A stretch of 64,000 bases of DNA from Candidatus Latescibacterota bacterium (GTDB lineage Bacteria; Latescibacterota; UBA2968; UBA8231). The translations under genes were made by a program, and so were the position numbers. The notes under the pieces are model-generated. The model was not told the DNA's origin, did no database searches, and worked only from the letters and a program-made list of their open reading frames with translations. Every line of letters begins with the position of its first letter. Position 1 is the stretch's first letter. Shown here one piece after another: positions 36,505 through 58,037 of the stretch. The DNA lies in NCBI GenBank assembly GCA_963422735.1, contig OY730476.1, positions 1,152,001-1,216,000 of the forward strand, in the 5' to 3' direction.

Positions 36505-36509
36505 GACGT

Positions 36510-37598: not shown

Positions 37599-37604
37599 GG
37601 CGTC

Positions 37605-38804: not shown

Positions 38805-38834
38805 TGTAGGGACAACCCCCTAGCGAACATCCAC

Positions 38835-39401: not shown

Positions 39402-39460
39402 GCCTGTTGCCTTTCCCTTGTTTATCTGCCCTTACCCATGTTGGGCGCAGGGTCAATCCT

Positions 39461-40864: not shown

Positions 40865-40916
40865 GTAAATCCTCCTTGGGGAATGGATGGTGTGGCGAGT
40901 GGCGAGTTTCCACTTT

Positions 40917-43181
40917 TCACGGGTACGTAGCATAGTGCATGGAAATCCCATAGGAGCGGCCCGGCAGCGGGTAGCCCCACAGATCGGCTACTTGATTGTC
41001 GGTCAGGTTGCGCAACTCCCAAGACAAGAAGATACCCTCGACCAGCGGCACGGTGCCGCCGAGGTTGTACAGGGCGCGAACGGGCACGGCGCGCAGATTG
41101 GCCCGGTCGAGGAAATGCCGGCTTTCGCGGCTGAATTCGCCGTAGATCTCTGCGCTCCTTAGGCCGAGGGAGAGGCGCGTATTGAGCCGATGGCGCGGTG
41201 CATTGGGCAGGTCGTTGCCCTGTTCAAAAGAGAACGGGGTGCGGTTTTCGGCGCGCTGGTACGCGTAATTGCCGCGCAGCGTCAGCCTTGGCAACAACCG
41301 CGCCTCGACCCGCGTTTCTACGCCGCGCAGCAAGGCGCGTCCCATATTGTGGGGCCGCGACACCCGCTGCGAGTTCTGCACAAAGCGAATGAGGTCTTCG
41401 ACGCGGTTGCGATAGTACACGGCCTCGGCCAGAATCAGCCCCACTCCATCGTCGGGACGACGGAAAACCAAGCCCAGATCCCAGTTGTGCCCTTCTTCAC
41501 TAACGAGTTTGGTATTGCCAATCACCGCGCCCCGGTCTCCGAAGAGTTCAAAGAAATTGGGGGCGCGATGATAGCGGCCATTGTGGGCTTTGAAGGCCAA
41601 GCCAGCCCCTAAGTCCAAGGCCGCACCTACTCGATAGCCCCACAGGATTTCGCCGTTATCCCGATTCGGCAATACCGCGCTGGGAGCAAAGTTCTTCCGG
41701 TCGAAAAGGCGATCGTCAAGACCTTCTGCCTGCGTGCCGGCATTGAAGGTCAAGCGATGCCCCAACGACACTTCCACCTCAGTCCCAACGGCTAACGCCC
41801 GGCGACGACTGCGCAAGAGGTGACTATCGGCCCGGAGCAGATCGTCGGGCATAAAAGTTTCGTGCCGAGCCGCGACAAAAGCAGTGAGCAGGGACCGGCC
41901 GGGCAGCAGGGCATTCACTTCGCTGCGCAGGCCCAAGCTTTGGGTGATGTTGCGGTCGTGCTGGCGGCCTAAGCCCACTTCGCCGCGCCGATCCCGGTAC
42001 TCGTCTTTTTCGCGAGAGTGGTACGCTCTGAGTCGGTACCCGGCGCGGCTGTGGCCCAGCGGGCCGAAGAGCACCGCTTCGGCGATATGGCGCCAAGTGT
42101 CGTAGCGGGTGTGCAGTGACTGGTTGTTGCCAATGCCGGGGATGCCTTTGTAGCTCAGGTCAAAGGTGTTGTGGATATGCAAGCGGCTGGCTCCCAAGCT
42201 GCGCCCGATTTTGGCTAGGCTGCGCAAGCTGCGAAAATCGCTGTTGAGCCGTCGCGCCCAACCGTCGTCTTGGGCGTTGTACTCAGTGCCGTTGTCGTCC
42301 CAAAAGCGGAAGTCGTTGCGGCTGGCTCTGTAGTTGACTAAGCCCAAGTACTTCCAGCCTTTATAGGGGCCACTAAGCGAAGCACCCAGTTGGCGGGTGT
42401 CGTACGAACCGGTAGCCGTGTGCAAGCGCGTACGGACTTTGCCACCGAGTGGCTGCGTGCGGATGTGGACGACGCTGCCGAGGCTGTTGCCGCCAAAGTG
42501 CGCCGGCACTGCGCCCCGGTATATATCGACGCTTTCGACGCCGCCGATGGGCAGACCGCCTAGATCGACGCCACCACCCACGGCTTGGTTGAGCGGCACC
42601 CCGTCGAGGAAAACTTGGACCTGTTCGGCCGTAGACCCGCGAATGGAGAGCGTGCTAAAACTGCCCAACCCTCCGTAGCGGCGTATGTTGACGCCGGCAG
42701 CGCGATCTAGGGTTTGGGCTAGGTCCGCGCCGGGAGCGCGCTGGTTGCCCAAGGCGATGGTTTCGACGAAAGAGGCAATATGCTTGCCCTCGGAGTCGCG
42801 GCGGGCGCGGACCACCAACTCGCCCATGAGCAGGGGCAGAGATTGCAGGTGCAACTTGACTGAGGTGGGGGCTACGCCGATTTGGATGTGGTCTTGCAGG
42901 GGCCGGTAGCCCAGCCGTTCCACGCGCAAATCCCAAGTGCCTGTTGCCAGATTTTCGAGACGGAAGGTGCCGGTCGTATCGCTGCGGACGGAACGACCGG
43001 CACCGGAGGGGGCACTCAGCGTCAATACGGCACCGGATACGGGGCGTCCCGCGTCTTGGTCGAGCAATCGGCCCTGTAGAGACCCGGCTAAGAGAGCCTC
43101 GGGATGCAGGGCCAGTAAGAGAGAAACAATAAAAAAGCCCGCCCTCGAATGAGAGCGGGTCTGGGTGCTTGTACTAGGCAC
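40917..43181 (-). CDS. TonB-dependent receptor, probable cobalamin transporter (BtuB-like)
   Basis: plug motif SIRGSTAEQVQVFLDGVPLN; C-terminal NLTD..GYPLPGRS; directly downstream of the B12 riboswitch. Confidence 0.88.
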   Translation of the reverse strand: MPSTSTQTRSHSRAGFFIVSLLLALHPEALLAGSLQGRLLDQDAGRPVSGAVLTLSAPSGAGRSVRSDTTGTFRLENLATGTWDLRVERLGYRPLQDHIQIGVAPTSVKLHLQSLPLLMGELVVRARRDSEGKHIASFVETIALGNQRAPGADLAQTLDRAAGVNIRRYGGLGSFSTLSIRGSTAEQVQVFLDGVPLNQAVGGGVDLGGLPIGGVESVDIYRGAVPAHFGGNSLGSVVHIRTQPLGGKVRTRLHTATGSYDTRQLGASLSGPYKGWKYLGLVNYRASRNDFRFWDDNGTEYNAQDDGWARRLNSDFRSLRSLAKIGRSLGASRLHIHNTFDLSYKGIPGIGNNQSLHTRYDTWRHIAEAVLFGPLGHSRAGYRLRAYHSREKDEYRDRRGEVGLGRQHDRNITQSLGLRSEVNALLPGRSLLTAFVAARHETFMPDDLLRADSHLLRSRRRALAVGTEVEVSLGHRLTFNAGTQAEGLDDRLFDRKNFAPSAVLPNRDNGEILWGYRVGAALDLGAGLAFKAHNGRYHRAPNFFELFGDRGAVIGNTKLVSEEGHNWDLGLVFRRPDDGVGLILAEAVYYRNRVEDLIRFVQNSQRVSRPHNMGRALLRGVETRVEARLLPRLTLRGNYAYQRAENRTPFSFEQGNDLPNAPRHRLNTRLSLGLRSAEIYGEFSRESRHFLDRANLRAVPVRALYNLGGTVPLVEGIFLSWELRNLTDNQVADLWGYPLPGRSYGISMHYATYP

Positions 43182-44019: not shown

Positions 44020-44676
44020 CTAATCCCTCAGTAGAATGTTCTGCTCCTTCAGGCTCTGGATTAATTGGCTAAATTTAGGCACCAATCGGATCACGATACG
44101 TCGATTAGGGGACTGTTCACCCTTTGTTCCGGTTAGGACAACCAGCTCCCGCTCACCTAAGCCAACTGGGACGATATCGAAATTTTCCCAAGTGAAGCCG
44201 ACCTGCTCCCAATAGTCCACTACAGTTTGAGATCTTTTCAGGGATAGGCTGCGATTGTATTCCCTCTCGCCGTAACTGTCGGTGTGGCCCTCTACCATAA
44301 TACTGAACAATCTACTGTCTTTTTTTTCAATAAACTGTTTTAATTTTTGACCCATTCGTCTAAGCCGATTTTGCCCTTCGACGGGAATATCATCCAGATC
44401 AGATTCATCAAAAGAGAACAAGATATCACTGCGCATCACAATAGTACCCTCTTCCACGACGACGTCTTCCCCCTCCATAAACTCCTCTAATTCATCGAGA
44501 TCTTTCTCTATTTTACCCACCAATTCTTCCAGCGTCCGCAGACGGCTCAGATCCACATAATTCTTGATCACCATCACAACGAGAAAAAAAGTGACGCAAA
44601 TGAAAATAGCCGTGATTGCATCCGTGAAAGAAGGCCAGAAATTGAGCCCACTATGACTACTGCGATTCCTTTTCAT
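44020..44676 (-). CDS. MotB/OmpA-family protein, ZorB-like
   Basis: FWPSFTD (conserved ion-binding Asp) in a single TM helix; OmpA-like motifs DILF, EGHTD, NRSLSLKRS, NRRI. Confidence 0.85.
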   Translation of the reverse strand: MKRNRSSHSGLNFWPSFTDAITAIFICVTFFLVVMVIKNYVDLSRLRTLEELVGKIEKDLDELEEFMEGEDVVVEEGTIVMRSDILFSFDESDLDDIPVEGQNRLRRMGQKLKQFIEKKDSRLFSIMVEGHTDSYGEREYNRSLSLKRSQTVVDYWEQVGFTWENFDIVPVGLGERELVVLTGTKGEQSPNRRIVIRLVPKFSQLIQSLKEQNILLRD

Positions 44677-44715
44677 CTAGGGCTGCTTTCCCAAGCATTC
44701 AGCCGGTGGGCCTGA

Positions 44716-46353
44716 CTATTCCTTGCTATCTTTCTTAAATAATCGACGGATCCAACCCCAATTTCTTCGCGGTCGTACGGTTATAACTTGCGGCGATTTC
44801 GCTATGCCGTCTAACTGTTTTTCTATAGCCTGCGCCGTCGCATGCATGTCTTCGAGTTGGGGGATTACCTGATCTATAGCCTTCAGTACTTGGAGATCCT
44901 CGTCCGCTTTTTTAAACCCTTGGTTGATGGCTCCTACCATTTGATCTAGCTGGTTCTGCAACGTTCCTGTCGCTTTGCTCAATCCCTGCAGATCTTGGCG
45001 GAGTCTTTCCAATTCATCTTGTAAGGGTTTCTTGGCCCGTTCAAACGCCTCTCCTTGCTCGTTGAGCGTCTTCTTCTGAAGTTCGAGTAAGGCATCTTGG
45101 CTCTCCCTGACAGCTATGAGCAGGGTCTGGATGTTCACGAAATTGGGACGATAATCTGTGTTATTCAATCCTCTTATCGTATCCAGAGTCTCGGCTAGGC
45201 CATCTCCTAGGGTCTCCATTCGCGTCTCAAATGACTTAGATTGTCTGTCCATCCGATCATCAAAGGCTTGAAACTGTCGGGCCATCAAGTGCTCGCTCTC
45301 CTTGAGCATAGTATCGACGCTGCTCTTGAGCGCATTCAGAGGCTCGCTTAGCCGCTCAAAGTTCTCGATGTGTCGAGAAAACTCTATAGCCGCTCTCATT
45401 ATTTCTTTCGCCCCCGTAGCTACCGTACCCTTGTGCTGCTCAAAAATCTCCGCGCTCTTCAGACTGGCCTCGCTACTTTCCTTGAGCTTCGTGCCGCTCT
45501 CTTCTATAAGTGAGACCATGCGGGCGTTACTATCGACAATTTCCTTGAGTCTTTTGTCTAAGTATTCGGAAAGAGTAGTGAAATACTTATCGTATAGGTC
45601 GTTTACTGTTCGAGTAAAGACGCGACTTAAACGCAACTGAGGCGGGATCACCGCAAACTTGGGAGCGATCTTCGCGTTGAAGCACTCTTCCAGATTTGCC
45701 AACAATCTGTTCCTACTACGAAGTAGTAAGCTATACGGAGCATTGAGTATTAGAGAAAAAGAAAGTCCTAAAAAACTGGTAATGAACGCCAGCGGCATCC
45801 CGCTTACGGACTGTCCTAATCCTGTTAGGATGGTATTAAATACATCCTCTATTTTTACATCTTGACTCGACGTCGGTGAAATCTGCGCTCCTTGGATAAT
45901 ACCTGGGATAGGTATGACCACGATTATTAATCCAACGAACGTGCCTAGCAGGCCCAATAGAATAAGGCTACTGGTAAGTGTGCGGAATGCTTCGTCGTGT
46001 CGGGCGAGTTCATGTTCGATAGAGCCGATAAGACTATCTACATCTGGAGCTTTATTTTGTCGGTATAAGGCTTCAAAATGTTTGAGCCAACGGACGGCCA
46101 AGGGATGCCGGGCACCCCTAATAACACTTTCGGGAGCCTGCTCTGTCTTTTCCTCTATATTGAAATCAGGATTGCTTCTCTCCCATCTCTCCATCGTACG
46201 CAATCCGTTGCGATATTGCCGCGTTTTTATGCACCCTCGGACAAATAGGACAAATGCATATAGGCCGACCAAGATAATGAGAACGACAAAAATTTCCCGA
46301 ACCTGATCGCTGTTTTGGGCTAAGAATTCTAAAAGGAGATCTAAATAAGGCAT
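44716..46353 (-). CDS. MotA/TolQ/ExbB-family protein with long coiled-coil tail, ZorA-like
   Basis: 3 TM helices; LGLLGTFVGL and GMPLAFITSFLG; about 340-aa helical tail. Confidence 0.8.
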   Translation of the reverse strand: MPYLDLLLEFLAQNSDQVREIFVVLIILVGLYAFVLFVRGCIKTRQYRNGLRTMERWERSNPDFNIEEKTEQAPESVIRGARHPLAVRWLKHFEALYRQNKAPDVDSLIGSIEHELARHDEAFRTLTSSLILLGLLGTFVGLIIVVIPIPGIIQGAQISPTSSQDVKIEDVFNTILTGLGQSVSGMPLAFITSFLGLSFSLILNAPYSLLLRSRNRLLANLEECFNAKIAPKFAVIPPQLRLSRVFTRTVNDLYDKYFTTLSEYLDKRLKEIVDSNARMVSLIEESGTKLKESSEASLKSAEIFEQHKGTVATGAKEIMRAAIEFSRHIENFERLSEPLNALKSSVDTMLKESEHLMARQFQAFDDRMDRQSKSFETRMETLGDGLAETLDTIRGLNNTDYRPNFVNIQTLLIAVRESQDALLELQKKTLNEQGEAFERAKKPLQDELERLRQDLQGLSKATGTLQNQLDQMVGAINQGFKKADEDLQVLKAIDQVIPQLEDMHATAQAIEKQLDGIAKSPQVITVRPRRNWGWIRRLFKKDSKE

Positions 46354-46381
46354 GGAGGGACTCTACCGTACAAGATTTTGT

Positions 46382-47332
46382 TCATTTCGCTAGTAAGATT
46401 CCGGCCTTGACAATTACCTCAGTTCCCCGACGTAATCCAGGTGTAACAAATCGAATCACGTGACCGCGGTCGACCTGAGAATCTTCTCGCTCATCGGAAA
46501 TTTGGTGATCTTCTGGCGAGTATTTGTCCCCTTGCTTTGGCCAAATCAACTCAAGGTCGCGTTCTTGGGCAAACCTTTCCAACTTTGCGGGTTTCTGTTC
46601 TAGCGATTTTTTTTTGCCATCCAACTGTTCGATTAAACCGATCAGTGCAGAATCCCACGGGCTGCTACGACTGTCTATCTTAGCTTGGATCGTCGTCCAT
46701 TGATCTTTGAGAGCCGATCCCTCCGATATAAAAGAGACAAGATCCAATTTATTCACTGCCTCTTTGATCTTTTTAATGTCCTCGTCAATGGTCTCGGCAT
46801 ACTGTATCGACGGCATACTCTCTTCAGGTTCTAGTGGAAGTTCGTCGAGCATTTCTCGGAAACGATCTCGGGTATTTGTAATCTTTGAGTATCTTTTGTT
46901 CCATTCTTCGTCAGCATCCCGTACTTCTTCTTGGAACGATTTTAGTCCCTTTTCCACATCGGCCTCTAGCTTTCGTAGCTCTTGAAATTTGGCGTTGGTA
47001 GGGATAGATTGACAGAGATCTACGTAATCGTCGTGGGACGCTTGTATATTGTCGTGGAACTTTGTCAGCTTTTTTCTGAAGTTACTCAAATCGTCCAAAA
47101 ATACGCCAACTTTCTTCACAAAGCTCTCTTCCGCTCCATCGAAGCCCTTGGCTACATCGAGGATATCCGAGAAGACGAGATCGCCAAGACCGCCTTTGTG
47201 TAGTTCTTCGCGGATCTGTCTTGTCTTGGAGACGATTTCCTGCAGAGCTTGGAGATCTTTCTCCCAGTGGGCAACTTCGTTGTCTAGAGCGTCAACCTTT
47301 TGTTGGAATTCTTCCATAGATATCCTATCCAT
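46382..47332 (-). CDS. coiled-coil protein with C-terminal GrpE-like domain
   Basis: C-terminal GDKYSPEDHQ...VIRFVTPGLRRGTEVIVKAGILLAK resembles the GrpE head; adjacent to the Hsp70-like gene. Confidence 0.65.
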   Translation of the reverse strand: MDRISMEEFQQKVDALDNEVAHWEKDLQALQEIVSKTRQIREELHKGGLGDLVFSDILDVAKGFDGAEESFVKKVGVFLDDLSNFRKKLTKFHDNIQASHDDYVDLCQSIPTNAKFQELRKLEADVEKGLKSFQEEVRDADEEWNKRYSKITNTRDRFREMLDELPLEPEESMPSIQYAETIDEDIKKIKEAVNKLDLVSFISEGSALKDQWTTIQAKIDSRSSPWDSALIGLIEQLDGKKKSLEQKPAKLERFAQERDLELIWPKQGDKYSPEDHQISDEREDSQVDRGHVIRFVTPGLRRGTEVIVKAGILLAK

Positions 47333-47396
47333 TTTAATCTTTTGCTAGTCTTTATTTTTTAACGTCTTCATTGTTAGGTACATTGCTACAAAACAT

Positions 47397-50300
47397 TCAA
47401 CTATAGTTAAAGTCCTCGCATTTCAAGTATTCATCATAGATTTCTTCAAAATCACTTCCATCCTTTTCTTTTCCTATCGCGAAGTTGTAATAGAGCCGAC
47501 CGAGATTGCTTTCGTCGACTCGAAGCTCGAGCTTGTACTGCCAATACGCGGCTTGCTTAAAAGCTCTGTTCTCTAGCGGCATGGGAATATCCGCTGCTTT
47601 CTGCCGATCTGCTTTCCGATTTTTGTAGTTCCAATCGAAGAATTCGTACAGTAAGATACTACGAATCTTACGATCATTAGGAGAAACCCTGCTCGCATAG
47701 CGATGTACCTCTCCCTTATCTAGGGAAATCCAACGGTCGAAAATGGGGCTGAAGCCTCGCATTGGATTGTAGGAACCTATCGGATAATTTAGCTTGTGTA
47801 TCCCGAAGACTCGAAGTCTGAACTCTGGATCGCGTTGAGACATGCTGTAAATAGCCGCTCCCGAAGCCACGCTCGCCTTCAGGCCATTATTGGAACCTGA
47901 AAGAGTAGAGTCCGAAAACTCTTTAGCCTGTATCATCTCCCGGGCGACTTCTTTCACAATCGGCAATTTGGACGAATTGCCGGCCAAGATCAGGTGGTCT
48001 AGCCGGAATTCCGATATAATCTCCCGCTTGAAAAGTTCCTGCTGCATCATAGCTAGTTTTTTGAAGCCCCATTCCAATTCTCGGCTGAGCACAGAGCGAA
48101 TAGCTTGGTAATCCATAGAGCTAAGTTCCTCCGGCAAGGCGTCGCCGTTGATGCTGCGCTTTAAGCCCTCCGTGACTTGAAATACATCGCGCTCTTCCCG
48201 GCTAACTAACTCAATCTTGGGCCAATTCATTTTCTCGTCGCTAGCTAGCAGGTCCAACAATCCCTTATCTTTTGTCTGGATCAGTTCCTCGTAGCGGTCC
48301 TGGGAAAAACATTGGTCGAACAACTGGTATGTCTTGCTGTTTGTCTTAATCTCCTCAGCTAACCGATAGAGACACAGAAAGTTCCTTTTCACGATACGAT
48401 CTTGGGTGCGTAAGCCATCGCGAAGATCTTTTGCAAAGGGATAGCGACTGCGGTACTGTTCAGGGACGAGTTGCTCGTAGAAATATTTAGCCAAGTGAAA
48501 CGTCAGCAGGTTTCCTCCCAGCCGATTGTCACCATCGGAACCGAGAATTTCCACTTGCGCTTCATCATTATCCATAGTGTAACGTACGATGGACATATCG
48601 GTCGTTCCCCCACCACAGTCGAATACCCCAATTATCTGTTCATCCATATCATCATTATCAAGCTGCTTCCACACATAATACACCGCTATAGCTTCAGGTT
48701 CACTAATGGCTAGGTCAAACTTAATGTCGCGATCCTGCAGAGCCTTTTCGGCCGCATCCCGCAGAGCCTGTTTTTGGCGATTGAATACTGCCGGATAAGT
48801 CAGCACGCCCTCTTCGGGCAAATACCCGAATTCTCCAATGAAGTGCTCTACCATAAACCGGAGATAAATAGCTACTTGGTCAACCGGAGTCAGGCTGATA
48901 TGCCGCCTATTGATAGGGGGATGCCCGTTGATCAAGATGCCTTCCGACATCCCGGTAGAAATATAGATATTCTGATCGTCGGGTTGACTGAGAGCATATT
49001 TGAAATTCCAGCAGATACTGCTCATAGAATGAAGGTCGTTCATCTGCTGAAATGGCTGACGCCCAAAGCGCATGATGGCTTCCTCGCTCTCGGTCGCCAC
49101 TAAGTGATGCTCGTTAGGCTCCAGAGGTTTGGAAAGTTCCAAACGTTCCGTTTTCTTATTTGTTGTCAGAAGCTGAAAGACAGTAGGCACTTCGACACGA
49201 GGTTCATTGGTTTCAAATGCTGCCAAGCGAGGCATTGTTTCTTCATCTTCAACAACATAGGCCAAGCAAGAATTGGTCGTCCCAAAATCGATACCAATAG
49301 GATAATCTAACGGTTTGGGAGGAATTACTTCGACAGAGAGTGAATACCTATCTTCGAACGCCGGGGCTTCCGCTCCTCTAGCCTCCCCCTTGACGATGAT
49401 CTCGGGTTTAAAATACTTTGATTCTGTTACCCAAGGGATTTCGATAGTCTTTATTTGCAACTGGAGATCCAGCACACTCTCCTCATCAGCTCCCGCCGTT
49501 GAAATCTGAGGGTTAAGGATGACCGGTGCCTTCTTGGTGTCAATGACCTGCAGCCAAGGCGTATCGCTGGTCACGCTATTTATGCGTAGTGGTTCGCCCC
49601 GTAAGTGCGTAATGGTGGCACTCACCTCTTTCTGTCTTCGACTTCCGCTTATAAGTGCCGTATCGCCGGATAAACCCAGCGGATTGAAATCCACCTTGAG
49701 CACCGGCTGACGAGTGTACTTTAGATTGAGATGAAAATCGATATCACCTCTGTTCTGGATGGGAAAAACGAGATGTACAGGATGCCCTTCTTCAGACAGA
49801 GGCTGATTTTGGGTGAGCCTTACCGAAAAGGCTTTGTCTGGACCCAAGCGGAAGGGGTAGCTTGCCTCCGCTGGCACCATATCCACCACCTGCTCTCCCT
49901 TGGCCAGCCGGGGAGGCTTTTCCAAAACCACTTCGCTTGCGGCATAAAGGGCCAGATCGTGCCTTTGAGCTTCCTGATTTACCGGCCACACCTGTGCGCC
50001 GTCAGTGCCTTGGTCAAACTCCCGCCCCTGCTCGTCAGTCAGCCAGATTCGGGGAGCCTTTTGGACCCGGTAACGAAATGAAATCGGTGGCAGCGTGGAG
50101 TGCAGGATCAACCGTCCCCGTTGGCCGAGACGCCCGGTATGTAGCCGGCGTATTTCTATTTTTTCTTTTGGAGCCAAAGAAACGGGCCAATCCGCTTCCG
50201 AAACCCATTCTCCCCATTCCACTCCATCGAGACGTTCCAGTTCCACGGGTATCTTCCCGGTATTCTCAAACCGCATGATGACTGGATAGCCTTCAAAGAG

Positions 50301-50456
50301 CGTCAATAGCTCATTGGGCTTGGGAAATACCTCTAGATGGGCGAGTTGAGTCCCGCAACTGCTGCAAAAGATGCTTCCCCTCCCATAAGGCCACTGACAA
50401 ACAGGACAAGCACCCATCGCCTTATCGGCCCGCTCTTGGCTCACTTCCCTAAGCAT
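47397..50456 (-). CDS. atypical Hsp70-family ATPase with N-terminal Zn ribbon and probable Ig-like domains
   Basis: CPVC...CSSCG; GIDFGTTNS, SEPEAIA, FDCGGGTTD, LGG, LAGNSSKLP, VASGAA. Confidence 0.85.
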   Translation of the reverse strand: MLREVSQERADKAMGACPVCQWPYGRGSIFCSSCGTQLAHLEVFPKPNELLTLFEGYPVIMRFENTGKIPVELERLDGVEWGEWVSEADWPVSLAPKEKIEIRRLHTGRLGQRGRLILHSTLPPISFRYRVQKAPRIWLTDEQGREFDQGTDGAQVWPVNQEAQRHDLALYAASEVVLEKPPRLAKGEQVVDMVPAEASYPFRLGPDKAFSVRLTQNQPLSEEGHPVHLVFPIQNRGDIDFHLNLKYTRQPVLKVDFNPLGLSGDTALISGSRRQKEVSATITHLRGEPLRINSVTSDTPWLQVIDTKKAPVILNPQISTAGADEESVLDLQLQIKTIEIPWVTESKYFKPEIIVKGEARGAEAPAFEDRYSLSVEVIPPKPLDYPIGIDFGTTNSCLAYVVEDEETMPRLAAFETNEPRVEVPTVFQLLTTNKKTERLELSKPLEPNEHHLVATESEEAIMRFGRQPFQQMNDLHSMSSICWNFKYALSQPDDQNIYISTGMSEGILINGHPPINRRHISLTPVDQVAIYLRFMVEHFIGEFGYLPEEGVLTYPAVFNRQKQALRDAAEKALQDRDIKFDLAISEPEAIAVYYVWKQLDNDDMDEQIIGVFDCGGGTTDMSIVRYTMDNDEAQVEILGSDGDNRLGGNLLTFHLAKYFYEQLVPEQYRSRYPFAKDLRDGLRTQDRIVKRNFLCLYRLAEEIKTNSKTYQLFDQCFSQDRYEELIQTKDKGLLDLLASDEKMNWPKIELVSREERDVFQVTEGLKRSINGDALPEELSSMDYQAIRSVLSRELEWGFKKLAMMQQELFKREIISEFRLDHLILAGNSSKLPIVKEVAREMIQAKEFSDSTLSGSNNGLKASVASGAAIYSMSQRDPEFRLRVFGIHKLNYPIGSYNPMRGFSPIFDRWISLDKGEVHRYASRVSPNDRKIRSILLYEFFDWNYKNRKADRQKAADIPMPLENRAFKQAAYWQYKLELRVDESNLGRLYYNFAIGKEKDGSDFEEIYDEYLKCEDFNYS

Positions 50457-53400
50457 TGGCGTCCGCCATCACATATATGTCGTCTTTGCAGTGAGGATCG
50501 CGATAGTCTAGGCGTTTGGCAAAACTATCTTTGTCCTGCAAGTATCGCTTTATACGGTCGTCCAATTCGCTGTCGCTGATATCCAAACGCTCTAGCACAT
50601 CATTGAATTTTTCGCCGAAAGCCTTGTCGAGCAGGTTGTGGAACAAGTCGTTCGCATCCACACTATTGCCGTGTATCACAACTTTGGTAGCGGGATATAC
50701 ATGCTCCACTAGATGGCTTTGGAGGGCCAAGTACTGCTCAAAAGCGAGGTTATTGCCATTCAAGTGCCAGTTGTCCTGAATCTTTTGCACCTCTTGGCGC
50801 AGCCTATCTCTTATAAACTGGTCTCGGGCCAAAGTCCGGCGTGCCATCTCGAGATTAAGTCCGTAATCGTCCTCGCGCTTTCGGCCCTGTGCGCGGTAGG
50901 TCCGGTAGAATCTTCGGTTGTCATAAGTCACTACCCCGAGTAAGATACCACCAATGAGCGGCTGTAGGGCATCCACTAGCATCCGCGCTTCTTGGTCGTT
51001 TTTAGGCGGTAGGATCTCCGGATATTTGATATAGTCCTTGGTCGTGTACCGCTTGTATACATTTTGCGGCATTCCACGGTTTTTTTCGTATGCTTCGTGC
51101 AGTTTATTCAAATTGTCGATAGCGAACAGGGGAAAGGCCATCCATTGGCTGACAAATATAACCGAATCGGGGGCGTGGTACTCCACTTGAGAGGCTCGCA
51201 CGTTTTGTTCGATTTGCGTTTTCCACCTGTTTTCACCTGGAGGAAGTCCTATTGTTCTCTGGATGTGAGGATCCATACCCGAGAAACGTGGTTTTGACTC
51301 GGACATCCGTGGTTCGGCCAGCCCTGATCTTTTCAGTATCTCATCTTTCTCATTATGGTTCTGGTTTTCCACCTCTTGAACGGCGTTTCTATCAGCATAG
51401 AACTCCTTAAATAGGCCAAACGAGAACTCACTCAATGAATCCTCTACCTCTCCCCAATCACGAGGGGTATTGTCCCTATTCGCAGAGCGATTGAAGATAA
51501 TGCGGGTACAATCGCGTATGGCATCGATCTCGTTCCCTTCGCGAGTAGCGTATTCAGCAAACAGCAGCCGGGCTTCTTGCGAGCGGAAATAGGTCTCCAA
51601 AACACCTTGTAAAACTTCATTGAAACCGGCACCCGTCCGTCCTTTTTTATGGCGTAGATACGTCTCTATTTCCTCGCGGTAGTTAAGTTCGGGCATGAGA
51701 TTGAGATTGCGCACACTGGACATCCGCTTGCTATAAGAACGATAGAAGCCCCCGAAGCGGTTAGCCATCTCTTGAAGATGATCTTGAAATTTCTCCACCT
51801 TGGCCAGCAAACCACTGAGTTGCACATGAAGTTCGCCATCTGCACCCCGGACTTGGGTCTGTTGGCCGACAAAGCCGATCATGTTGTCAAGCAGGCCCTT
51901 TTCCTGCTCATGTCTCCCGGAATTGGGATTGAGCAGCCGACGGGCCGCCTCCTGCTCATAGCGATCAGTGACCCATTGCTTGAGTTGGTCCCTGACGGCC
52001 TCTACCTGCTGTTCCAGATTACGGGTGAAGAGCTGGGCATTCTGATCAAAGGACTTCCGTTTGCGTTCTTCATAATAGTTGATAGCAATGCGTTTCGTTA
52101 AGACGGCAAAGGGCATCTCCTGTCTAGCCGCTCGTAGGAGAGCCTCGTATTTATTGTACTCGTCGGAAAATTCGATTGGGATCGGCGGAGCCTCTGGTGC
52201 TTCTATGGGCCGGTTCTCCATGGCCTGCAATTCCTCTTTGACCCGCTCCAGTGCATCGACGGCGATCTTCAGCCACTCAACCATGAATTTGGGGCCGAAC
52301 TCCAAGGGGTCGCACAGTAATTTCAGACATTCATCTTCTACTCGCTTTTCGAGCTCGGGACGGTCTGAGCCAATATTTTCCAAAATCTGCTTCACACCAT
52401 CGCCCTTTTGGGTGCCTTGCTGTAACAGTCTTTCCCCTACTCGTCTCCGCACTTGGCTAACCCATTCAACCATCTGCTGCCGCGTTTGCTCCACTTGGCG
52501 GTCCAAAACCTTTTGGTCCCTTACCACCGGTGCCGCGAGCAAATCGTCCCGCAATTTATTGAAAGCCGGTTCGATCAACTCGTTGACGACCTCGTCTATC
52601 AAGGTGAAATCCTTTCCCGGCTTGACCAAGCAGCGTTTCAAAAAGAGATCCTTAGTCAGGCCCATCTGCTCCATGCGGGGTTTGACATCGGCATCATCAA
52701 AGCCCTGAGGAATTCTGTTGTCCTTGGCTATGATGAGTTCTACCAGATACTGAGCGCAGCGGTTGGCAGCCGCATTGGCCATACGAGGCTGATTCAATTC
52801 AATCTGGGAAAGCCCAAAAGATGCATACCGACGTGGAAAATACTGGACATAGTTTCCGCTGCTGAAGATGGCCATATCTTGTAGGTACTGCTCCATATTG
52901 GAACGTACGCTGCGCTTTTGAGCGGCGAATCTGGTCTTGTCGAAATCCAGCAGTAGAAATTCAGCGATCATCTGGAATGTATCGGTGAATTCGTCAATGC
53001 GTTCTCCGGCCATATTCTCCTTGTCGAGCATATAGACCGTCGAAAAAGGCGGTGCTTCCACCTGCCGTGAGGTTCCATCCCAATTAAATTCGTGGGTAGA
53101 GTACTCGCTTGTCTCCTCGTCTGTGGTGGCAATAAACCGGGGCTGCATGAAGTACTCGAGTTCCTTGAGCGCGGCAAAGCCGTTGGCATGGACGGCCTCT
53201 ACTCCTGTGGGATCCACTTTATCGTCGAAAACCGTGGGCATGGCCAGAAAAGCCGTGCGCGTAGAAGTCGAGAACAAAACTCGACATAGAAATCCGACGT
53301 CGATAAAGCAACCAGACCCCGTTCCACCACCGAGGGAAGACACAGTAATAATCTCCAAGGTGCTAGTATCTACCTCATAATCAGGGTAATGGCTGTTCAT

Positions 53401-53901
53401 GTGTGCAACGGCCTCTTGGGCAGTTACCTTTCTCCCCAATCTGTTGATGGCATCGCGAATTCTTGTGTAATGGTGGAAGAAAGCCAACCGTCCGAAGGAA
53501 CGGATCTGCGCTGCCCCTTGCGTGATAGCATTGTCGGCCATCGCGTCTAGTTCGCTGGGCAACCAGTCCCATATATGCGGATAGGCATTCTTGTTGCGCC
53601 GGTATCCAGCCAACTCCTCGGGCTGGACCCGCCCATCAATCTTCTGTGAAATGGTAAGGTCAATGAGCCTGTCCAACTCGTCAGGTACCTCCTCGCTCAG
53701 GGACTCATTGCGGATGTCAGTATCGAACCACAGGTATTCCATGACGGGTAAACCCGCTACTCTGTACTTTTCGTAGAACAGCCGCCGCAGCCGCCGCAGT
53801 ACTTCCTTTCCCGTACCGCCCAAGCCGATCAAAAGCGTGGGACGGATATCTATCGTTTGGTTTTCTTTTTTTGCTTTAGTTAGAGTACCCACCTTAGCCA
53901 T
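50449..53901 (-). CDS. large tubulin/FtsZ-like GTPase (Tubulin_2/FtsZl1-like) with long helical C-terminal region
   Basis: LLIGLGGTG, GAAQIRSFGRLAF, GGGTGSG signature, ANGFAALKEL; GAAGGAG RBS before the ATG at 53901. Confidence 0.88.
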   Translation of the reverse strand: MAKVGTLTKAKKENQTIDIRPTLLIGLGGTGKEVLRRLRRLFYEKYRVAGLPVMEYLWFDTDIRNESLSEEVPDELDRLIDLTISQKIDGRVQPEELAGYRRNKNAYPHIWDWLPSELDAMADNAITQGAAQIRSFGRLAFFHHYTRIRDAINRLGRKVTAQEAVAHMNSHYPDYEVDTSTLEIITVSSLGGGTGSGCFIDVGFLCRVLFSTSTRTAFLAMPTVFDDKVDPTGVEAVHANGFAALKELEYFMQPRFIATTDEETSEYSTHEFNWDGTSRQVEAPPFSTVYMLDKENMAGERIDEFTDTFQMIAEFLLLDFDKTRFAAQKRSVRSNMEQYLQDMAIFSSGNYVQYFPRRYASFGLSQIELNQPRMANAAANRCAQYLVELIIAKDNRIPQGFDDADVKPRMEQMGLTKDLFLKRCLVKPGKDFTLIDEVVNELIEPAFNKLRDDLLAAPVVRDQKVLDRQVEQTRQQMVEWVSQVRRRVGERLLQQGTQKGDGVKQILENIGSDRPELEKRVEDECLKLLCDPLEFGPKFMVEWLKIAVDALERVKEELQAMENRPIEAPEAPPIPIEFSDEYNKYEALLRAARQEMPFAVLTKRIAINYYEERKRKSFDQNAQLFTRNLEQQVEAVRDQLKQWVTDRYEQEAARRLLNPNSGRHEQEKGLLDNMIGFVGQQTQVRGADGELHVQLSGLLAKVEKFQDHLQEMANRFGGFYRSYSKRMSSVRNLNLMPELNYREEIETYLRHKKGRTGAGFNEVLQGVLETYFRSQEARLLFAEYATREGNEIDAIRDCTRIIFNRSANRDNTPRDWGEVEDSLSEFSFGLFKEFYADRNAVQEVENQNHNEKDEILKRSGLAEPRMSESKPRFSGMDPHIQRTIGLPPGENRWKTQIEQNVRASQVEYHAPDSVIFVSQWMAFPLFAIDNLNKLHEAYEKNRGMPQNVYKRYTTKDYIKYPEILPPKNDQEARMLVDALQPLIGGILLGVVTYDNRRFYRTYRAQGRKREDDYGLNLEMARRTLARDQFIRDRLRQEVQKIQDNWHLNGNNLAFEQYLALQSHLVEHVYPATKVVIHGNSVDANDLFHNLLDKAFGEKFNDVLERLDISDSELDDRIKRYLQDKDSFAKRLDYRDPHCKDDIYVMADANA

Positions 53902-54043
53902 AGTATTCTCCTTCAATTTTGCTTCAACCAGTCATTAAATGCTGTCTGAAAACCTTCGGCTGCGCTCAGGTCGAAGCCCCCGGCGGCTGTCGCACGAGGG
54001 GCAAAGTATCCGCAGATGAGCGCAGAGGCGGATTGCTTGGGAC

Positions 54044-55087
54044 TCACTCGGAATTTTCAGCGGCCGATGGCCGGGCGACAAGTTTTACTATCACCACAAT
54101 GAGAATTAGGATCACCATCCAAGCGATGAAGACTCGCCATTCAATTTGCGACCATGACACCCAGCCCATTGAAAAATCAAAAAGGCCGCTCAACCCACAG
54201 GAGGCGATCACCGCAAAGCCCCCCCACGATACGAGGGCGGATATGCCAAAAGCCGTGGCCGGGTGCTTGTCTCGGTTCTTAATGAGCCCGCTAAAGAGTA
54301 TATAGACCGAAAAGATATAGACGATTACAGAAAACACCAGAATCCAGACTATGCGCCCAACCTCCACATAGCGAAAGGTGCCCTTCGATCTGGTCACCGG
54401 TGGCGGGACTCCTACCCGAACAGGTTCAAATTGGTCCGAGGGGATGCCCAGCAGCGGTTTAGCTTCATCAATTGAGACCGCAAAATTGAGATTCTGCCCC
54501 TCGCCATGGCTAGAGCTTAGATTAAAACTTACCACGCCAATTACCTCCCCGGTCTGGTCGAATAAAGGCCCGCCACTATTGCCCGGCGATACGGCAGCAT
54601 CCGTCTGAATCAGCCTGAGGCCCTCCGGGGTAGTACGGACCTCGGAGATAATCCCTTCAGTGACCGAGTACTCTAGCCCTAACGGGTTGCCTATTGCCAC
54701 GACGGGATCGCCCGAACTTATATACTCCCCTGATCCAAGCCTAGACTGCTGTAGGTGTTGGTTGCGCGGATCGACGTTTATCACCGCTAGATCTTTGAGT
54801 TCGTCTTGGGCGACAACGCCCGTAATCGGCATCCAAGTTCCGTTGAACGGCTTGGCCCATCCTTCTTTGATGCCCTTGATTACATGGTGCGCCGTGAGAA
54901 TTTGGCCCGTTGACTTGACGATGATTCCGCTCCCCACTTCCTCTCCTTCATTGGTAGAGACCTTGAGGAATACTACGCTTCCCTTCTCTTCCTTGGCAAT
55001 CTGCTGAGTAAACGTGGAGCCGCTTTGTCCCGGCCCGCCACACCCCATCCAGCCGATAATCAGTATTATGATGATGTGCCGTTTCAT
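54044..55087 (-). CDS. trypsin-like (HtrA/S1C-type) serine protease with three C-terminal TM helices and no PDZ domain
   Basis: lipobox-like WMGC; LTAHHV, DLA, IQTDAAVSPGNSGGPL catalytic triad; hydrophobic C-terminus. Confidence 0.88.
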   Translation of the reverse strand: MKRHIIIILIIGWMGCGGPGQSGSTFTQQIAKEEKGSVVFLKVSTNEGEEVGSGIIVKSTGQILTAHHVIKGIKEGWAKPFNGTWMPITGVVAQDELKDLAVINVDPRNQHLQQSRLGSGEYISSGDPVVAIGNPLGLEYSVTEGIISEVRTTPEGLRLIQTDAAVSPGNSGGPLFDQTGEVIGVVSFNLSSSHGEGQNLNFAVSIDEAKPLLGIPSDQFEPVRVGVPPPVTRSKGTFRYVEVGRIVWILVFSVIVYIFSVYILFSGLIKNRDKHPATAFGISALVSWGGFAVIASCGLSGLFDFSMGWVSWSQIEWRVFIAWMVILILIVVIVKLVARPSAAENSE

Positions 55088-55102
55088 CTTGCCTCCCTCG
55101 TG

Positions 55103-56704
55103 CTATTTGAGGCGTTCCAGTTCAATATTGCCCTTGTGGTTGAAAATCTCATCCTTTTCAAAAGCCACCCCCTCCTCGCTGACCGGATCGCCCATCCGAT
55201 TTATTAACTCGGCCCTTGGCAGTAAGCAGTATTTGCATTTGAACAAGCCGTCTCGCCGCAAGTATCCCAAAACGATATCCTTTCCGCTTTGGTTTGTGTA
55301 CCCCAATTCCTTTTGACCGCCGGGGCGCATCCAGTACTTGTACTCGACATCTGCCAGCCGGTAAACGAGCCTTCTAAAATAAACCCTTCCTCCGGCAGCT
55401 ACCACAGCGATGGGTAGCAAGATCACCTTGACCCAAGCCCACCACAGATAGAGAGGGGAACGGACTTGCAGCCTGCCTCTTATGGCTCCTCCCTTGGGCA
55501 CCACTTCCAAACCCTCTCGGTCTCGGTGTAGGAAGTGTATCAGATCTTCTGGCGTATAGATACGCTCGACCTCTTGGAGGTTGTCGGTGAAGTACTTCTC
55601 CTGATAAGTCGGAGTCATGCGAAACGAGCCGGGCGGTATCTCCAAGACGACCTTGGACATATATTGCACTGGAATCGGGCTTATACGCGCCATGCCAAGC
55701 TGGTCGAAGAAGCCGACTTCGTTGGGCAATAATGGTCCTAGGTGGACCCGGCACGAATAGCGGTATTTGTTTTGGCTATTGTGCTCTAGCTTCTCTTCAA
55801 GGCGGGGTGGAGTAACTCGTCCTCTCCCGCCGGCTCGACTCCAGTACCGCCGATCTCCGGGCTGCATGGGAACGATCCTAGGTTGGCTTACCTTCAACCG
55901 CACCGGATTACCATGCCCATCGGTCGGCTCGATATTCAGGTAGCTCAATTGCGACTCTAAGGTAAAGGAGAAATATACCGACTCGGATTCGTCCATGCCG
56001 ATGTCGCTCGGCTGGTCCGAATGTGCCCGGCGTTTGCGATGTAGAACAATGCGGTGATCTAGCGGTTTCATCAGCATCGGTTCCAAACCGCCAGTCTTGA
56101 GTCGGGAGATGAGTTTGCCGAATCTAGTGCGCTGATCTTCTTCTGTGAGATAGGCATATAGGACCGCCCCACGCGGACCTTGGTGGTATGTCTTGTCCGG
56201 GTGATTGAACAACCGTCCGTCAAAGGGCAGACTCAGCGGCACGGCATATAGTACTTGTACTGCATCCTCGGCAAAACGTGTATAGAGCCCTCGAACATCC
56301 TCGTCATTGGTGGTCGCCTGCACATTATCGGTTAAGAAAAAAGTAATCGGTGCCCATCCAAGCCCTTCTTTAAAAGCCCTGAGCAAATTGGTATAGCTGC
56401 CCCAGCGTGCGTCTTGGATCTCCTCGATCCAAACGAGCGAATCCGGGTGTTGGGATATAAAAAATAAAGTGCCTGCCTCCAGTTGCTGATCTTGGCAGGC
56501 TTTTTCCAACGAGGTCAGCAATTTCTGTAGCTCACCTGTTTGCTGGAAGCCCTCCATTGAACCAGAGCCATCGACCAAGATGCTGACATCGGTCCCAGCG
56601 GCGGTACGAGGGCCGCCAAACCCTAGGCAGCACAGCAGAGCAACGTACCAGATTCGTTGGTTTTCAAATGGCCAATAGGTCATAGCGATATAGATGGTAC
56701 TCAT
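55103..56704 (-). CDS. membrane-anchored vWA-domain protein
   Basis: signal-like N-terminus; MIDAS motif DGSGS, TNL, FLTD; single TM near the C-terminus followed by a small cytoplasmic domain. Confidence 0.7.
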   Translation of the reverse strand: MSTIYIAMTYWPFENQRIWYVALLCCLGFGGPRTAAGTDVSILVDGSGSMEGFQQTGELQKLLTSLEKACQDQQLEAGTLFFISQHPDSLVWIEEIQDARWGSYTNLLRAFKEGLGWAPITFFLTDNVQATTNDEDVRGLYTRFAEDAVQVLYAVPLSLPFDGRLFNHPDKTYHQGPRGAVLYAYLTEEDQRTRFGKLISRLKTGGLEPMLMKPLDHRIVLHRKRRAHSDQPSDIGMDESESVYFSFTLESQLSYLNIEPTDGHGNPVRLKVSQPRIVPMQPGDRRYWSRAGGRGRVTPPRLEEKLEHNSQNKYRYSCRVHLGPLLPNEVGFFDQLGMARISPIPVQYMSKVVLEIPPGSFRMTPTYQEKYFTDNLQEVERIYTPEDLIHFLHRDREGLEVVPKGGAIRGRLQVRSPLYLWWAWVKVILLPIAVVAAGGRVYFRRLVYRLADVEYKYWMRPGGQKELGYTNQSGKDIVLGYLRRDGLFKCKYCLLPRAELINRMGDPVSEEGVAFEKDEIFNHKGNIELERLK

Positions 56705-57917
56705 GATCGCGAGTCAGCACGTACACGTATTTGCCGAAACCCGCTGGCGGCACAACTGGCTCTTCGCCTAAAGGCCAGCTTCGCAAGAAAGGTTCCCCTC
56801 CCCATTCATCAAGACGGGAAAGACGAAATTCCGTATTAGCTCCCACTCCTCTTTGGAAATTGGCGACCAAGCCGCCCAAGCCTTTGGTCTGATCGAGGTG
56901 CCTCATGGAATATCCGGGACTACACTCCAATTTGGACGCAACTTGCCGATCCAACGGATCGAACAACAGCATAAAATTAGACCCTATCGCCATATAGCAA
57001 TAGCCGGACTCGATCCGCAATGCCTGTAGGGCCTGTACCTCTACCTTGGTTCGGCCCGGAATTTCTTTTAGCACCTGTTGGCCGACTAACTGTAGGGCAC
57101 ACAAGCCCCCTTCTTGATTCAATAGCCATATTGACGGATCCTCGCCGCGCATCACGCCCTCCCAAGCGGCTAATGTGTCGCTGAGGGTACCCCTATACGG
57201 GATTTTCTCTCCTTGTTCTAAATCCAAGAAAGCAACCCTGTTTTCCTCCTCTATTAAGCCTAGATAGACATCGCTTCCCCGAATTGGAATCATTTCTTCG
57301 ATATGCGACGAATTTTTGTATGGCTTTTGCAATTCGTCGAAAATGCGGTCCTTGCTCTTCCAGTATCGATCGCAACTTGCTTTATCTACCTTATACATAT
57401 GAATAGTCAACGCCTCTTGGGCCAGCAGGAAAAGTCGATTCCGGCCTAAGGCAATCTTCTCGACGCGCTCACATTCCACGGCAACCTGCTTCCACGAAGT
57501 AACTTGCAGCATATCGTCGTTCAACAACGCAGAGGTCGGAAATACCTGCAGCGTCCCCACCTCCGTGAGCGCGTAAATCCACCAGCGGTCAAAATCCACC
57601 TGACGCAAGGAAGCCCCATTGAGCCGAGGCAGGTCGCGTGGCTCGTCCTCTATGTAGGTACTCATTTCTCCGCTGGATTTATTCACTAATACAGGCTGGC
57701 CGAATACGTTAAAGAAGTCGTCAACTTGGTCCATAATGACCTCCATATTCCCAACAGCACTGTCTTTACTCTCTCCAGAAGGTATGTCGGCCATGTAATC
57801 GACAGGTTTGCTCTCGACAGCATCGCCGCAAACTGCACAAAAATTAGCGAGTGCATGATGCTCGCGACCATCTTTAGAACACATCCAAGCGTTCTTCTGC
57901 CAATTCCAGTTTTGCAT
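56664..57917 (-). CDS. hypothetical protein with N-terminal Zn ribbon and probable beta-propeller
   Basis: C-x6-H..NFCAVCG; beta-rich repeats ending PPAGFGKYVYV; first gene of the operon. Confidence 0.65.
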   Translation of the reverse strand: MQNWNWQKNAWMCSKDGREHHALANFCAVCGDAVESKPVDYMADIPSGESKDSAVGNMEVIMDQVDDFFNVFGQPVLVNKSSGEMSTYIEDEPRDLPRLNGASLRQVDFDRWWIYALTEVGTLQVFPTSALLNDDMLQVTSWKQVAVECERVEKIALGRNRLFLLAQEALTIHMYKVDKASCDRYWKSKDRIFDELQKPYKNSSHIEEMIPIRGSDVYLGLIEEENRVAFLDLEQGEKIPYRGTLSDTLAAWEGVMRGEDPSIWLLNQEGGLCALQLVGQQVLKEIPGRTKVEVQALQALRIESGYCYMAIGSNFMLLFDPLDRQVASKLECSPGYSMRHLDQTKGLGGLVANFQRGVGANTEFRLSRLDEWGGEPFLRSWPLGEEPVVPPAGFGKYVYVLTRDHEYHLYRYDLLAI

Positions 57918-58009: not shown

Positions 58010-58037
58010 AAAATAGACCGCTACTGAGTAATGTCAA
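58010..58037 (-). promoter_or_regulatory. sigma70-type promoter for the 8-gene operon
   Basis: TTGACA-N16-TATTTT about 90 bp upstream of the ATG at 57917. Confidence 0.55.

Follow-up and report, generated by a model that had tools for sequence, protein, structure and literature searches.

A ZorA/ZorB-like motor pair at the end of a gene array encoding tubulin-like and Hsp70-like proteins in Candidatus Latescibacterota

A 64,000-nt stretch of DNA from Candidatus Latescibacterota bacterium (contig OY730476.1, positions 1,152,001-1,216,000), referred to here as the window, was analyzed, and its 46 open reading frames (ORFs) were scanned with Pfam and PADLOC. The subject of this report is a pair of adjacent genes encoding a ZorA-like A subunit of 545 amino acids (aa) (44716..46353, minus strand) and a ZorB-like B subunit of 218 aa (44020..44676, minus strand), both found where a preliminary description of the sequence had placed them. 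The two genes close the 3′ end of an operon of eight same-strand genes (44020-57917, minus strand), in which neighbouring genes overlap by as much as 41 nt or lie as much as 127 nt apart, and only 28 nt separate the ZorA-like gene from the GrpE-like gene that precedes it. The order of the array is p417 (zinc-ribbon-like), p533 (tentatively vWA-like), protease, tubulin-like, Hsp70-like, GrpE-like, ZorA-like and ZorB-like. The guanine-cytosine (GC) content of the array is 0.496, compared to 0.593 for the rest of the window. The pair had been described as an orphan; this is correct in that no PADLOC match to ZorC, ZorD, ZorE, ZorF or ZorG was found among the 46 window ORFs, but the pair is not free-standing, as it forms the last part of an eight-gene array in which it is retained in all eight of the relatives described below.

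The A subunit was predicted to contain three transmembrane (TM) segments, at residues 20-38, 129-147 and 185-203. The AlphaFold2 (AF2) model of the protein, built with 34 relatives, had a predicted local distance difference test score (pLDDT) of about 90 over residues 20-230, and the membrane core was followed by helices at residues 238-304, 312-395, 402-493 and 497-514. Across the 34 relatives G134, G141 and F190 are invariant, and T138 and S193 are nearly so. Among the PADLOC models, ZorA3 matched the A subunit with an E-value of 9.4e-12 (42 bits) and ZorA1 with an E-value of 3.3e-9, and the ZorA and ZorB models were the only defence models that matched the pair. When the A-subunit model was compared with the PDB using Foldseek, the first match was EcZorA (8qyd_A, E-value 7.2e-4, TM-score 0.52 on the target), and ranks 2 and 3 were occupied by two further ZorA entries, with no flagellar MotA among the matches listed. 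The best structural match was therefore EcZorA, and the outcome that the preliminary description had named as refuting its reading, best matches to MotA or TolQ proteins from outside Zorya, did not occur; the margin over ExbB and TolQ was small.

Approximately 333-340 residues follow the third TM segment of the A subunit, in agreement with the 340 or so counted earlier. If this cytoplasmic tail (residues 214-545; 44719..45714, minus strand) forms a single continuous helix bundle, it would presumably be about 45-50 nm long. The periodicity of the tail is that of an amphipathic helix: it peaks at 3.58 residues, with local periods of 3.46-3.66, and its power of 143-147 is to be compared with 47-51 (standard deviation 14-15) for the best period of shuffled sequences. 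Because heptad and longer periods are mixed, the tail can be considered coiled-coil-like but not purely heptad, and the term 'heptad-rich' used previously is a rough approximation. Among 16 close relatives the length of the A subunit varies from 528 to 594 aa by means of 29-aa units (zero to three extra copies) and a 22-aa unit, which in some relatives is inserted near the base of the tail. In one relative (L003, 11236-11499) the 29-aa unit is encoded by an 87-bp tandem repeat with 3.0 copies and 95% identity; the window has one.

A basic-aromatic amphipathic tip, RPRRNWGWIRRLFKK, is located at residues 527-541 (44731..44775, minus strand). It has a high helical hydrophobic moment, 0.80 for its best 12-mer, RRNWGWIRRLFK, although it does not form the very end of the protein as had been thought, because four residues (DSKE) follow it to the C-terminus. 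The tip is nearly invariant among the 16 close relatives. Comparable tips were counted with an ad hoc rule, by which a 12-mer has at least three K/R, at least four hydrophobic residues including one aromatic, at most one D/E, and a moment of at least 0.45. By this rule, 11 of 38 distant long-tailed representatives had a comparable tip within the last 30 residues, compared to 0 of 38 and 1 of 38 for internal 30-residue controls, and in short-tailed relatives the count was 5 of 78 with controls of 3 and 2. In composition the tip may resemble the amphipathic helices by which MinD and FtsA are targeted to the membrane, or else a client motif for Hsp70.

The B subunit has one TM segment (residues 19-37), which holds D19 and is followed by a helix of approximately 30 residues, and an OmpA-type domain at residues 87-192 (Pfam E-value 2.1e-12). 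PADLOC ZorB1 matched the protein with an E-value of 9.9e-21 (72 bits). In this alignment residues 5-212 run colinearly along positions 10-228 of the 232-position ZorB1 profile, and because this colinearity is nearly end to end, the B subunit has no long linker of the MotB type, as was originally proposed. By sequence, EcZorB (8qyd_F) matched residues 2-153 with an E-value of 3.2e-6, and D19 aligns with EcZorB Asp26, a residue described as essential for ion translocation in the available text of PMC11946911. The same source names Tyr151, Asn152, Leu155 and Arg159 as the peptidoglycan-binding residues of EcZorB, and the counterparts in the B subunit, Y140, N141, L144 and R148, are exact. With PADLOC models matching both proteins, EcZorA as the top fold match, and the TM aspartate and four peptidoglycan-binding residues conserved, the original assignment of a ZorA/ZorB-like pair was upheld.

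The likeness to Zorya extends from the three TM segments and long helical cytoplasmic tail of the A subunit to the TM aspartate and the peptidoglycan-binding domain of the B subunit, with its pattern Y-N-x-x-L-x-x-x-R and without a long linker, and the B gene comes immediately after the A gene. The tail is also labelled chemoreceptor-like by annotation pipelines, as has been described for part of the EcZorA tail. In contrast, the scores are only 16-42 bits for ZorA models and 33-72 bits for ZorB models, the tail has about 333 aa as compared to 507 aa in EcZorA, the A-subunit model has no β-hairpin, and the B subunit has no ZorB disulfides. In place of ZorC, ZorD, ZorE, ZorF or ZorG, the array supplies tubulin-like, Hsp70-like, GrpE-like, protease and vWA-like proteins as partners. 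The gene orders given for Zorya in the available text of PMC11946911 are zorABCD, zorABE and zorGABF, whereas here the pair stands at the end of an eight-gene set. Overall, the sequence and model comparisons support a pair that shares the ZorAB architecture and would work like a ZorAB motor, and that is not to be filed under Zorya types I-III.

The largest of the partner proteins is an FtsZl1/Tubulin_2 protein of 1155 aa (50449..53916, minus strand), in which Pfam Tubulin_2 (PF13809) matched residues 28-392 with an E-value of 7.8e-64 (216.6 bits) and the tubulin signature GGGTGSG is found at residue 196. The protein has 268 relatives at an E-value of 1e-10 or better, and a C-terminal extension of about 760 aa that is conserved (alignment A3). 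In the PDB, residues from about 500 to 710 matched only designed coiled-coil proteins (E-value 4e-7), so that the middle of the extension is probably a coiled-coil region, which could pair with other coiled coils of the array. The Hsp70-like ATPase of 1019 aa (47397..50456, minus strand) matched Pfam HSP70 with an E-value of 4.6e-15, with an N-terminal Zn_Ribbon_1 match, and it matched the DnaK nucleotide-binding domain with an E-value of 3e-12. All three nucleotide motifs of such domains, for phosphate and adenosine, are in place, at 390, 613 and 824. No Hsp70 substrate-binding domain was detected in this protein; no domain match was obtained for the stretch of about 340 aa (approximately 40-380) that separates the zinc ribbon from the ATPase domain, nor for the C-terminal 150 aa or so (approximately 870-1019). 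Between the Hsp70-like gene and the motor pair lies the gene for a coiled-coil protein of 316 aa (46382..47332, minus strand), with a tentative GrpE-like C-terminal domain based on a sub-threshold Pfam match.

The trypsin/HtrA-like serine protease of 347 aa (54044..55087, minus strand) matched Pfam Trypsin_2 with an E-value of 3.3e-29 and the NCBIfam Do family with an E-value of 3.5e-41. It has a signal-like N-terminus, the residues His67, Asp99 and GNSGG at 169, and C-terminal TM segments at 238-256, 277-295 and 319-337. The membrane protein p533 (533 aa; 55103..56704, minus strand) has a TM segment at 418-436 and a sequence, DGSGS at residues 45-49, that resembles a metal ion-dependent adhesion site (MIDAS). 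In 21 relatives with at least 37% identity, D45, S47, G48, S49, T125 and D126 are invariant. The VWA_2 clusters of the Atlas scored only 0.82 with p533, and BLASTP comparisons with two annotated plasmid vWA proteins were not significant (E-values 0.44 and 0.8). On the basis of these residues p533 may tentatively be regarded as a vWA protein, as a lead only. The gene for p417 (417 aa; 56664..57917, minus strand) overlaps that of p533 by 41 nt, and its product has zinc-ribbon-like residues at the N-terminus (C13, H20, H21, C27 and C30). No Pfam, NCBIfam or PADLOC match was found for p417, and the Atlas gave beta-propeller leads only, at 0.77-0.78. Upstream of this first gene is a promoter-like site (58010..58037, minus strand; TTGACA-16-TATTTT, 10 of 12 consensus matches). 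This is a consensus match only; sites of this kind are no more numerous in the region than in shuffled sequences.

Downstream of the pair, at a distance of 840 nt, lies a gene for a TonB-dependent receptor (40917-43181) with a GC content of 0.62, compared to 0.45-0.47 for the pair. A cobalamin riboswitch (RF00174, 43212-43404, minus strand, 108.7 bits) is located upstream of the receptor gene. Together with a series of genes for B12-type uptake and an adenosyltransferase (35488-40951), the receptor makes up a separate unit of host-like GC content.

A word-based search with the A subunit recovered 26 proteins, all with at least 73% identity. In a profile search of 1.84 billion representatives, 415 had E-values of 1e-3 or better, 12 of 1e-10 or better, and 5 of 1e-30 or better. 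ZorA models matched 21 of 25 distant representatives, none with more than 56 bits, and judged by these scores the distant relatives are other long-tailed MotA-like proteins and not canonical ZorA. They include a cluster named MotA/TolQ/ExbB proton channel family protein (P0056, Sphingobacteriales) and a hypothetical protein of 539 aa from the cyanobacterium Gloeomargarita (P0093, E-value 8e-7).

A scan of species-representative genomes returned 39 loci (L001-L039). The first eight are metagenome-assembled genome (MAG) loci from Latescibacterota (73-85% identity), and in all eight the protease, tubulin-like, Hsp70-like, GrpE-like, ZorA-like and ZorB-like genes are present in the same order. The p533 gene was found in seven of the eight, the flank of the eighth ending earlier, and the TonB-dependent receptor is located downstream of the pair in seven of the eight. 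The low GC content of the array is common to all seven relatives measured. Across these eight loci the identity to the window ranges from 61-89% for the GrpE-like protein to 91-96% for the ZorB-like protein.

The gene trees of the tubulin-like, Hsp70-like, GrpE-like and ZorA-like proteins are mutually incongruent, with values of 94-100 in the Shimodaira-Hasegawa-like approximate likelihood ratio test (SH-aLRT). For example, L008 groups with L003 and L006 by its tubulin-like gene (SH-aLRT 100), while by its Hsp70-like (98) and GrpE-like genes it groups with the window. This pattern points to recombination between lineages, with MAG chimerism as the alternative. Two of the eight relatives carry a split gene: in L002 (985-5646) the tubulin-like gene is present as two ORFs of 492 and 687 aa about 1.1 kb apart, and in L008 (9995-11595) the ZorA-like gene is present as two ORFs of 90 and 450 aa. 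The split genes may be due either to decay or to assembly or sequencing errors.

A linkage between tubulin-like and motor genes has been tabulated before, since 2010, but it was not read there as involving a Zorya-type motor. The FtsZl1 family was defined by Makarova and Koonin in 2010 (PMC2875224), and the available parts of that paper describe vWA, GTPase, kinase and 'OmpA family' neighbours and propose a role in membrane remodelling. In its supplementary file 5, the order vWA-FtsZl1-'B7' (hypothetical, 524-563 aa)-COG1360 'flagellar motor protein'/OmpA (185-263 aa) is listed for four cyanobacteria, Anabaena variabilis, Cyanothece PCC 8802, Microcystis aeruginosa and Trichodesmium erythraeum, and the order FtsZl1-'MotA/TolQ/ExbB membrane protein' (411 aa)-OmpA (200 aa) for Deinococcus deserti and D. 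radiodurans. Neighbours named 'GrpE', 'DnaK' and Do-protease are tabulated elsewhere in that file, and the tally given for 56 FtsZl1 genes is 6 COG1360, 4 COG2885 and 3 COG0265. As in the cyanobacterial operons, the array in the window encodes, in this order, a Tubulin_2 protein (about 1100 aa), a second protein (about 520-560 aa) and a MotB/OmpA protein (about 200-260 aa), and it also shares a Do-type serine protease (COG0265) neighbour with FtsZl1 operons; it differs in that Hsp70-like and GrpE-like genes are located between the tubulin-like gene and the motor. The likeness to 'B7' is one of gene order and size, and the Gloeomargarita protein, which is the size of 'B7', is the only sequence bridge.

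For Deinococcus the motor-type identity was also seen in the proteins themselves. A D. radiophilus plasmid carries a tubulin-like gene with a gene pair downstream of it that matched PADLOC ZorA1 (E-value 7e-7) and ZorB1 (E-value 8.5e-8) and that aligned with the ZorA-like profile with an hhalign probability of 98.6%; the association of a tubulin-like gene with such a motor pair recurs in a remote phylum. A tblastn search of 72,556 plasmids with the window's own A subunit gave no match. Two further sets of distant proteins had the same longest contig reported for each member, of 35763 bases for a ZorA-like (35% identity), a tubulin-like (48%) and a p533-like (37%) protein, and of 69857 for a second ZorA-like and tubulin-like pair.

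Nine plasmid records contained a relative of the tubulin-like protein, and six of these were inspected, one being the D. radiophilus plasmid above and two being uninformative. On two Thermaceae plasmids (L041, 7375-16467; L044, 8416-16375) a cassette of vWA, tubulin-like and hypothetical (about 680 aa) genes lies directly beside brxL, and genes for a RecQ-type helicase, a WYL protein, and an exonuclease or methyltransferase are close by. On an Azospirillum plasmid (L043, 6990-21056) the tubulin-like gene is found amid three caspase-family, three OmpA-family, DUF4384 and PEGA genes.

We propose, with about even confidence in the package as a whole, that the two proteins form a ZorAB-type motor, driven by ions and anchored to peptidoglycan, whose tail would transmit a signal from the envelope to the tubulin-like and Hsp70-like nucleoside triphosphatases (NTPases), and that the array as a whole is probably a conflict system. 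As in the homologous MotAB, ExbBD and ZorAB, the complex would presumably contain A and B subunits in a 5:2 ratio. As ZorA recruits ZorC and ZorD according to the available text of PMC11946911, it is reasonable by analogy that the tail may serve to dock the products of the upstream genes. The FtsZl1/Tubulin_2 GTPase is the constant cytoplasmic partner, and the Hsp70-like ATPase and GrpE-like factor are additions in this lineage. The vWA-like protein and the exported trypsin-like protease would be located on the periplasmic side. Modelled on Zorya, the likeliest course of events is as follows: an envelope perturbation would lead the ZorB-like subunit to bind peptidoglycan, ion flow by way of Asp19 would turn the ZorA-like ring, and the tail would relay the signal so that the partners that depend on nucleoside triphosphates assemble or are remodelled near the membrane. 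The output would then be proteolysis or a membrane or cytoskeletal response, and not DNA cleavage. The reading as a conflict system is based on the low GC content of the array, the incongruent trees, the variation in tail repeats, the split genes, the brxL/BREX (bacteriophage exclusion) and caspase neighbours of tubulin-like relatives, and the systems described by Kaur, Burroughs, Iyer and Aravind in 2020 (PMC7159879).

In the available text of that paper, tubulin, HSP70 and GrpE components are part of predicted NTP-dependent conflict systems with DO-GTPase/GAP1 cores. The array resembles the DO-GTPase/GAP1-N2 systems in its tubulin, HSP70, GrpE, vWA, zinc-ribbon and trypsin-like components and its membrane-proximal character. 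In those systems, which are from Firmicutes and Actinobacteria, tubulin and HSP70/GrpE are separate, non-overlapping themes, and MotA, MotB and ExbB have no mention in the available text. The array was not assigned to this class, as it has no core pair: among the products of the eight genes, Pfam and NCBIfam recognised no GTPase apart from the tubulin-like protein, and the absence of GAP1 rests on the two unassigned array proteins not resembling P-loop GTPases and not on a GAP1 model.

A more specific version of the proposal, which we consider speculative and somewhat unlikely in its full detail, is that a Zorya-type motor has been rewired from nuclease recruitment to cytoskeletal and chaperone control. 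Rotation of the tail, tunable in length by its repeats, would trigger GTP-dependent assembly of FtsZl1, the Hsp70-like and GrpE-like proteins would serve as an assembly or reset factor, the periplasmic vWA-like protein and protease would be a sensor or executioner, and the tip would bind the membrane or a partner. The cyanobacterial and Deinococcus FtsZl1 operons tabulated in 2010 would then be machines of the same kind, serving either immunity or envelope surveillance, and would make up a widespread class, so far unrecognised, that places a prokaryotic tubulin downstream of an ion-driven motor.

Several results weigh against the proposal of a ZorAB-type motor serving a conflict system. With respect to the A subunit, Pfam MotA_ExbB scored 21.5 bits, below its cut-off of 22.9, and the Foldseek runners-up were ExbB (E-value 2.2e-3) and TolQ (about 5e-3), the ExbB and TolQ matches together ranging from 2e-3 to 6e-3. 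A comparison of the A-subunit profile with PDB sequences gave nothing significant, the ZorA entry 8qyy_A being matched with an E-value of 0.78 and over the tail only. The NCBIfam Zorya models scored far below their cut-offs (ZorB1, 32.8 versus 400 bits; ZorA_4, 16.4 versus 500). A β-hairpin or additional β structure in the membrane-proximal domain is given for Zorya in PMC11946911 and PMC12505986, and the accessible portions of PMC12505986 name it as a hallmark. DSSP assigned no strand to the membrane-proximal residues 42-125 (pLDDT 74-91) in the AF2 model, which, as a monomer made from 34 sequences, carries limited weight on this point. The sole cysteine of the B subunit, C27, is inside the TM segment, and with a single cysteine the protein can therefore have neither of the two disulfides of EcZorB. 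As for the partners, Pfam GrpE matched residues 251-310 of the GrpE-like protein with 24.5 bits (cut-off 25.8), NCBIfam GrpE scored 16.3 bits, and no GrpE match was found among PDB sequences. No Pfam match to p533 was found even at E-values up to 10. Its AF2 model had a pLDDT of 49, and the best Foldseek matches were Rossmann folds of the methyltransferase-like type (E-value 0.022), with the vWA-type ArnAB in sixth place (E-value 0.067).

The recurrence of the linkage and the defence role are affected as well. The 31 further loci of the genome scan (L009-L039, some on short contigs) contained shorter MotA/MotB-like pairs without a tubulin-like or Hsp70-like gene and are uninformative about the array itself, and the equal longest contigs are an indirect sign of linkage that was found for only 2 of 20 distant ZorA-like representatives. 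The tubulin-like protein, p533 and p417 had no PADLOC match, and no nuclease, toxin domain or other classical effector was found in the array by Pfam or PADLOC. The array has also kept one chromosomal position in eight species, which fits a vertically inherited housekeeping device equally well.

The last two points also speak for the main alternative, which we regard as rather unlikely. Here the array would be a housekeeping machine for membrane remodelling or a cytoskeletal function, in which the motor anchors and powers a tubulin-like filament that shapes the inner membrane, forms vesicles or organises the envelope, with no role in conflict. A function of this kind was proposed for the FtsZl1/vWA/OmpA operons, as seen in the available parts of PMC2875224. 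The ZorB-like protein is 91-96% identical across species, as compared to 76-91% for the flanking receptor, and all eight related species carry the array at the same position. The tip, whose composition presumably resembles that of membrane-targeting helices, would also be in keeping with such a machine. However, a housekeeping function does not readily account for a low-GC island with mosaic gene trees and split copies in two of eight relatives, nor for the rarity of the ZorA-like family (the five representatives at 1e-30 or better among 1.84 billion), and relatives of the tubulin-like protein adjoin BREX and caspase genes.

It is quite improbable that the pair belongs to a true but stripped Zorya system, with diverged zorAB genes in the window, effectors (zorC/D, zorE or zorF/G) elsewhere in the genome, and unrelated upstream genes. 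This alternative would explain why the ZorA and ZorB models are the only PADLOC defence models to match the pair and why EcZorA is the best fold match. The position of the pair argues otherwise, because it is last in the array, unlike in the zorABCD, zorABE and zorGABF orders given in the available text of PMC11946911, it begins only 28 nt from the preceding gene, and it is co-inherited with that gene in eight of eight relatives. In addition, no Zor effector model matched any of the 46 window ORFs, the NCBIfam cut-offs were not reached, and the remote Deinococcus pair is likewise linked to a tubulin-like gene.

It is very improbable that the pair energises the neighbouring TonB-dependent cobalamin receptor in the manner of ExbBD/TolQR, and this reading was rejected. 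In its favour are the three-TM fold of the A subunit, its close fold matches to ExbB and TolQ, and the receptor and B12-type uptake genes next to the pair (in seven of eight relatives for the receptor). Against it, the B subunit is OmpA-type and colinear with ZorB rather than of the ExbD/TolR type, no TonB or TolA domain was found among the window ORFs scanned, and the receptor has its own riboswitch and a GC content unlike that of the pair. In L004 about 2 kb lie between the pair and the receptor, and the flank of L008 is without a receptor. As a matter of general knowledge, ExbB and TolQ lack a long tail, and a tail of 333 aa is not known to have a role in Ton systems. A flagellar MotAB stator was also rejected, since the A subunit has three TM segments, compared to the four of MotA with its torque-generating interface, and there are no flagellar genes in the window. 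Indeed, the earlier statement that no flagellar or Tol genes are nearby holds for all 46 window ORFs scanned; the FlgD_ig matches that were seen are Ig-like domains of secreted proteins and not flagellar genes.

To our knowledge, the use of a flagellar-stator-like motor for immune sensing has been documented only for Zorya, where the known outputs are nucleases. In the full-text literature, with subscription-only papers and bioRxiv supplements outside the scope, no paper was found that joins ZorAB-type motors with tubulin-like or Hsp70-like genes. If the coupling of a ZorAB-type motor to tubulin-like and Hsp70-like NTPases is real, it would provide a concrete way into the mechanism of the FtsZl1 family, a family of open function since its definition in 2010, and would extend the ZorAB principle of envelope signal, rotation, tail and cytoplasmic effector to effectors that are not nucleases. 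The proposal predicts that Tubulin_2 genes are enriched beside long-tailed MotA/MotB-like pairs. The natural variants of the tail, with zero to three copies of the 29-aa unit, would then bear on the role of tail length.

Two other regions of reduced GC content were observed in the window. A Peptidase_M78 (IrrE-like) protein with weak PADLOC RmrA matches (32880-34037, minus strand) is encoded in a lower-GC stretch at 32-34 kb. In a second low-GC patch, from approximately 14000 to 20200 (GC content 0.47-0.56), a GmrSD_N/HEC-05-like gene (14908-16503) is accompanied by an ORF with a weak match to type II restriction enzymes (18594-19433) and by the gene for a type II methyltransferase (19280-20176, PADLOC 303 bits). 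This patch is flanked by mandelate racemase-type ORFs, one with the N-terminal domain (10165-10653) and the other with the C-terminal domain (20324-21667).

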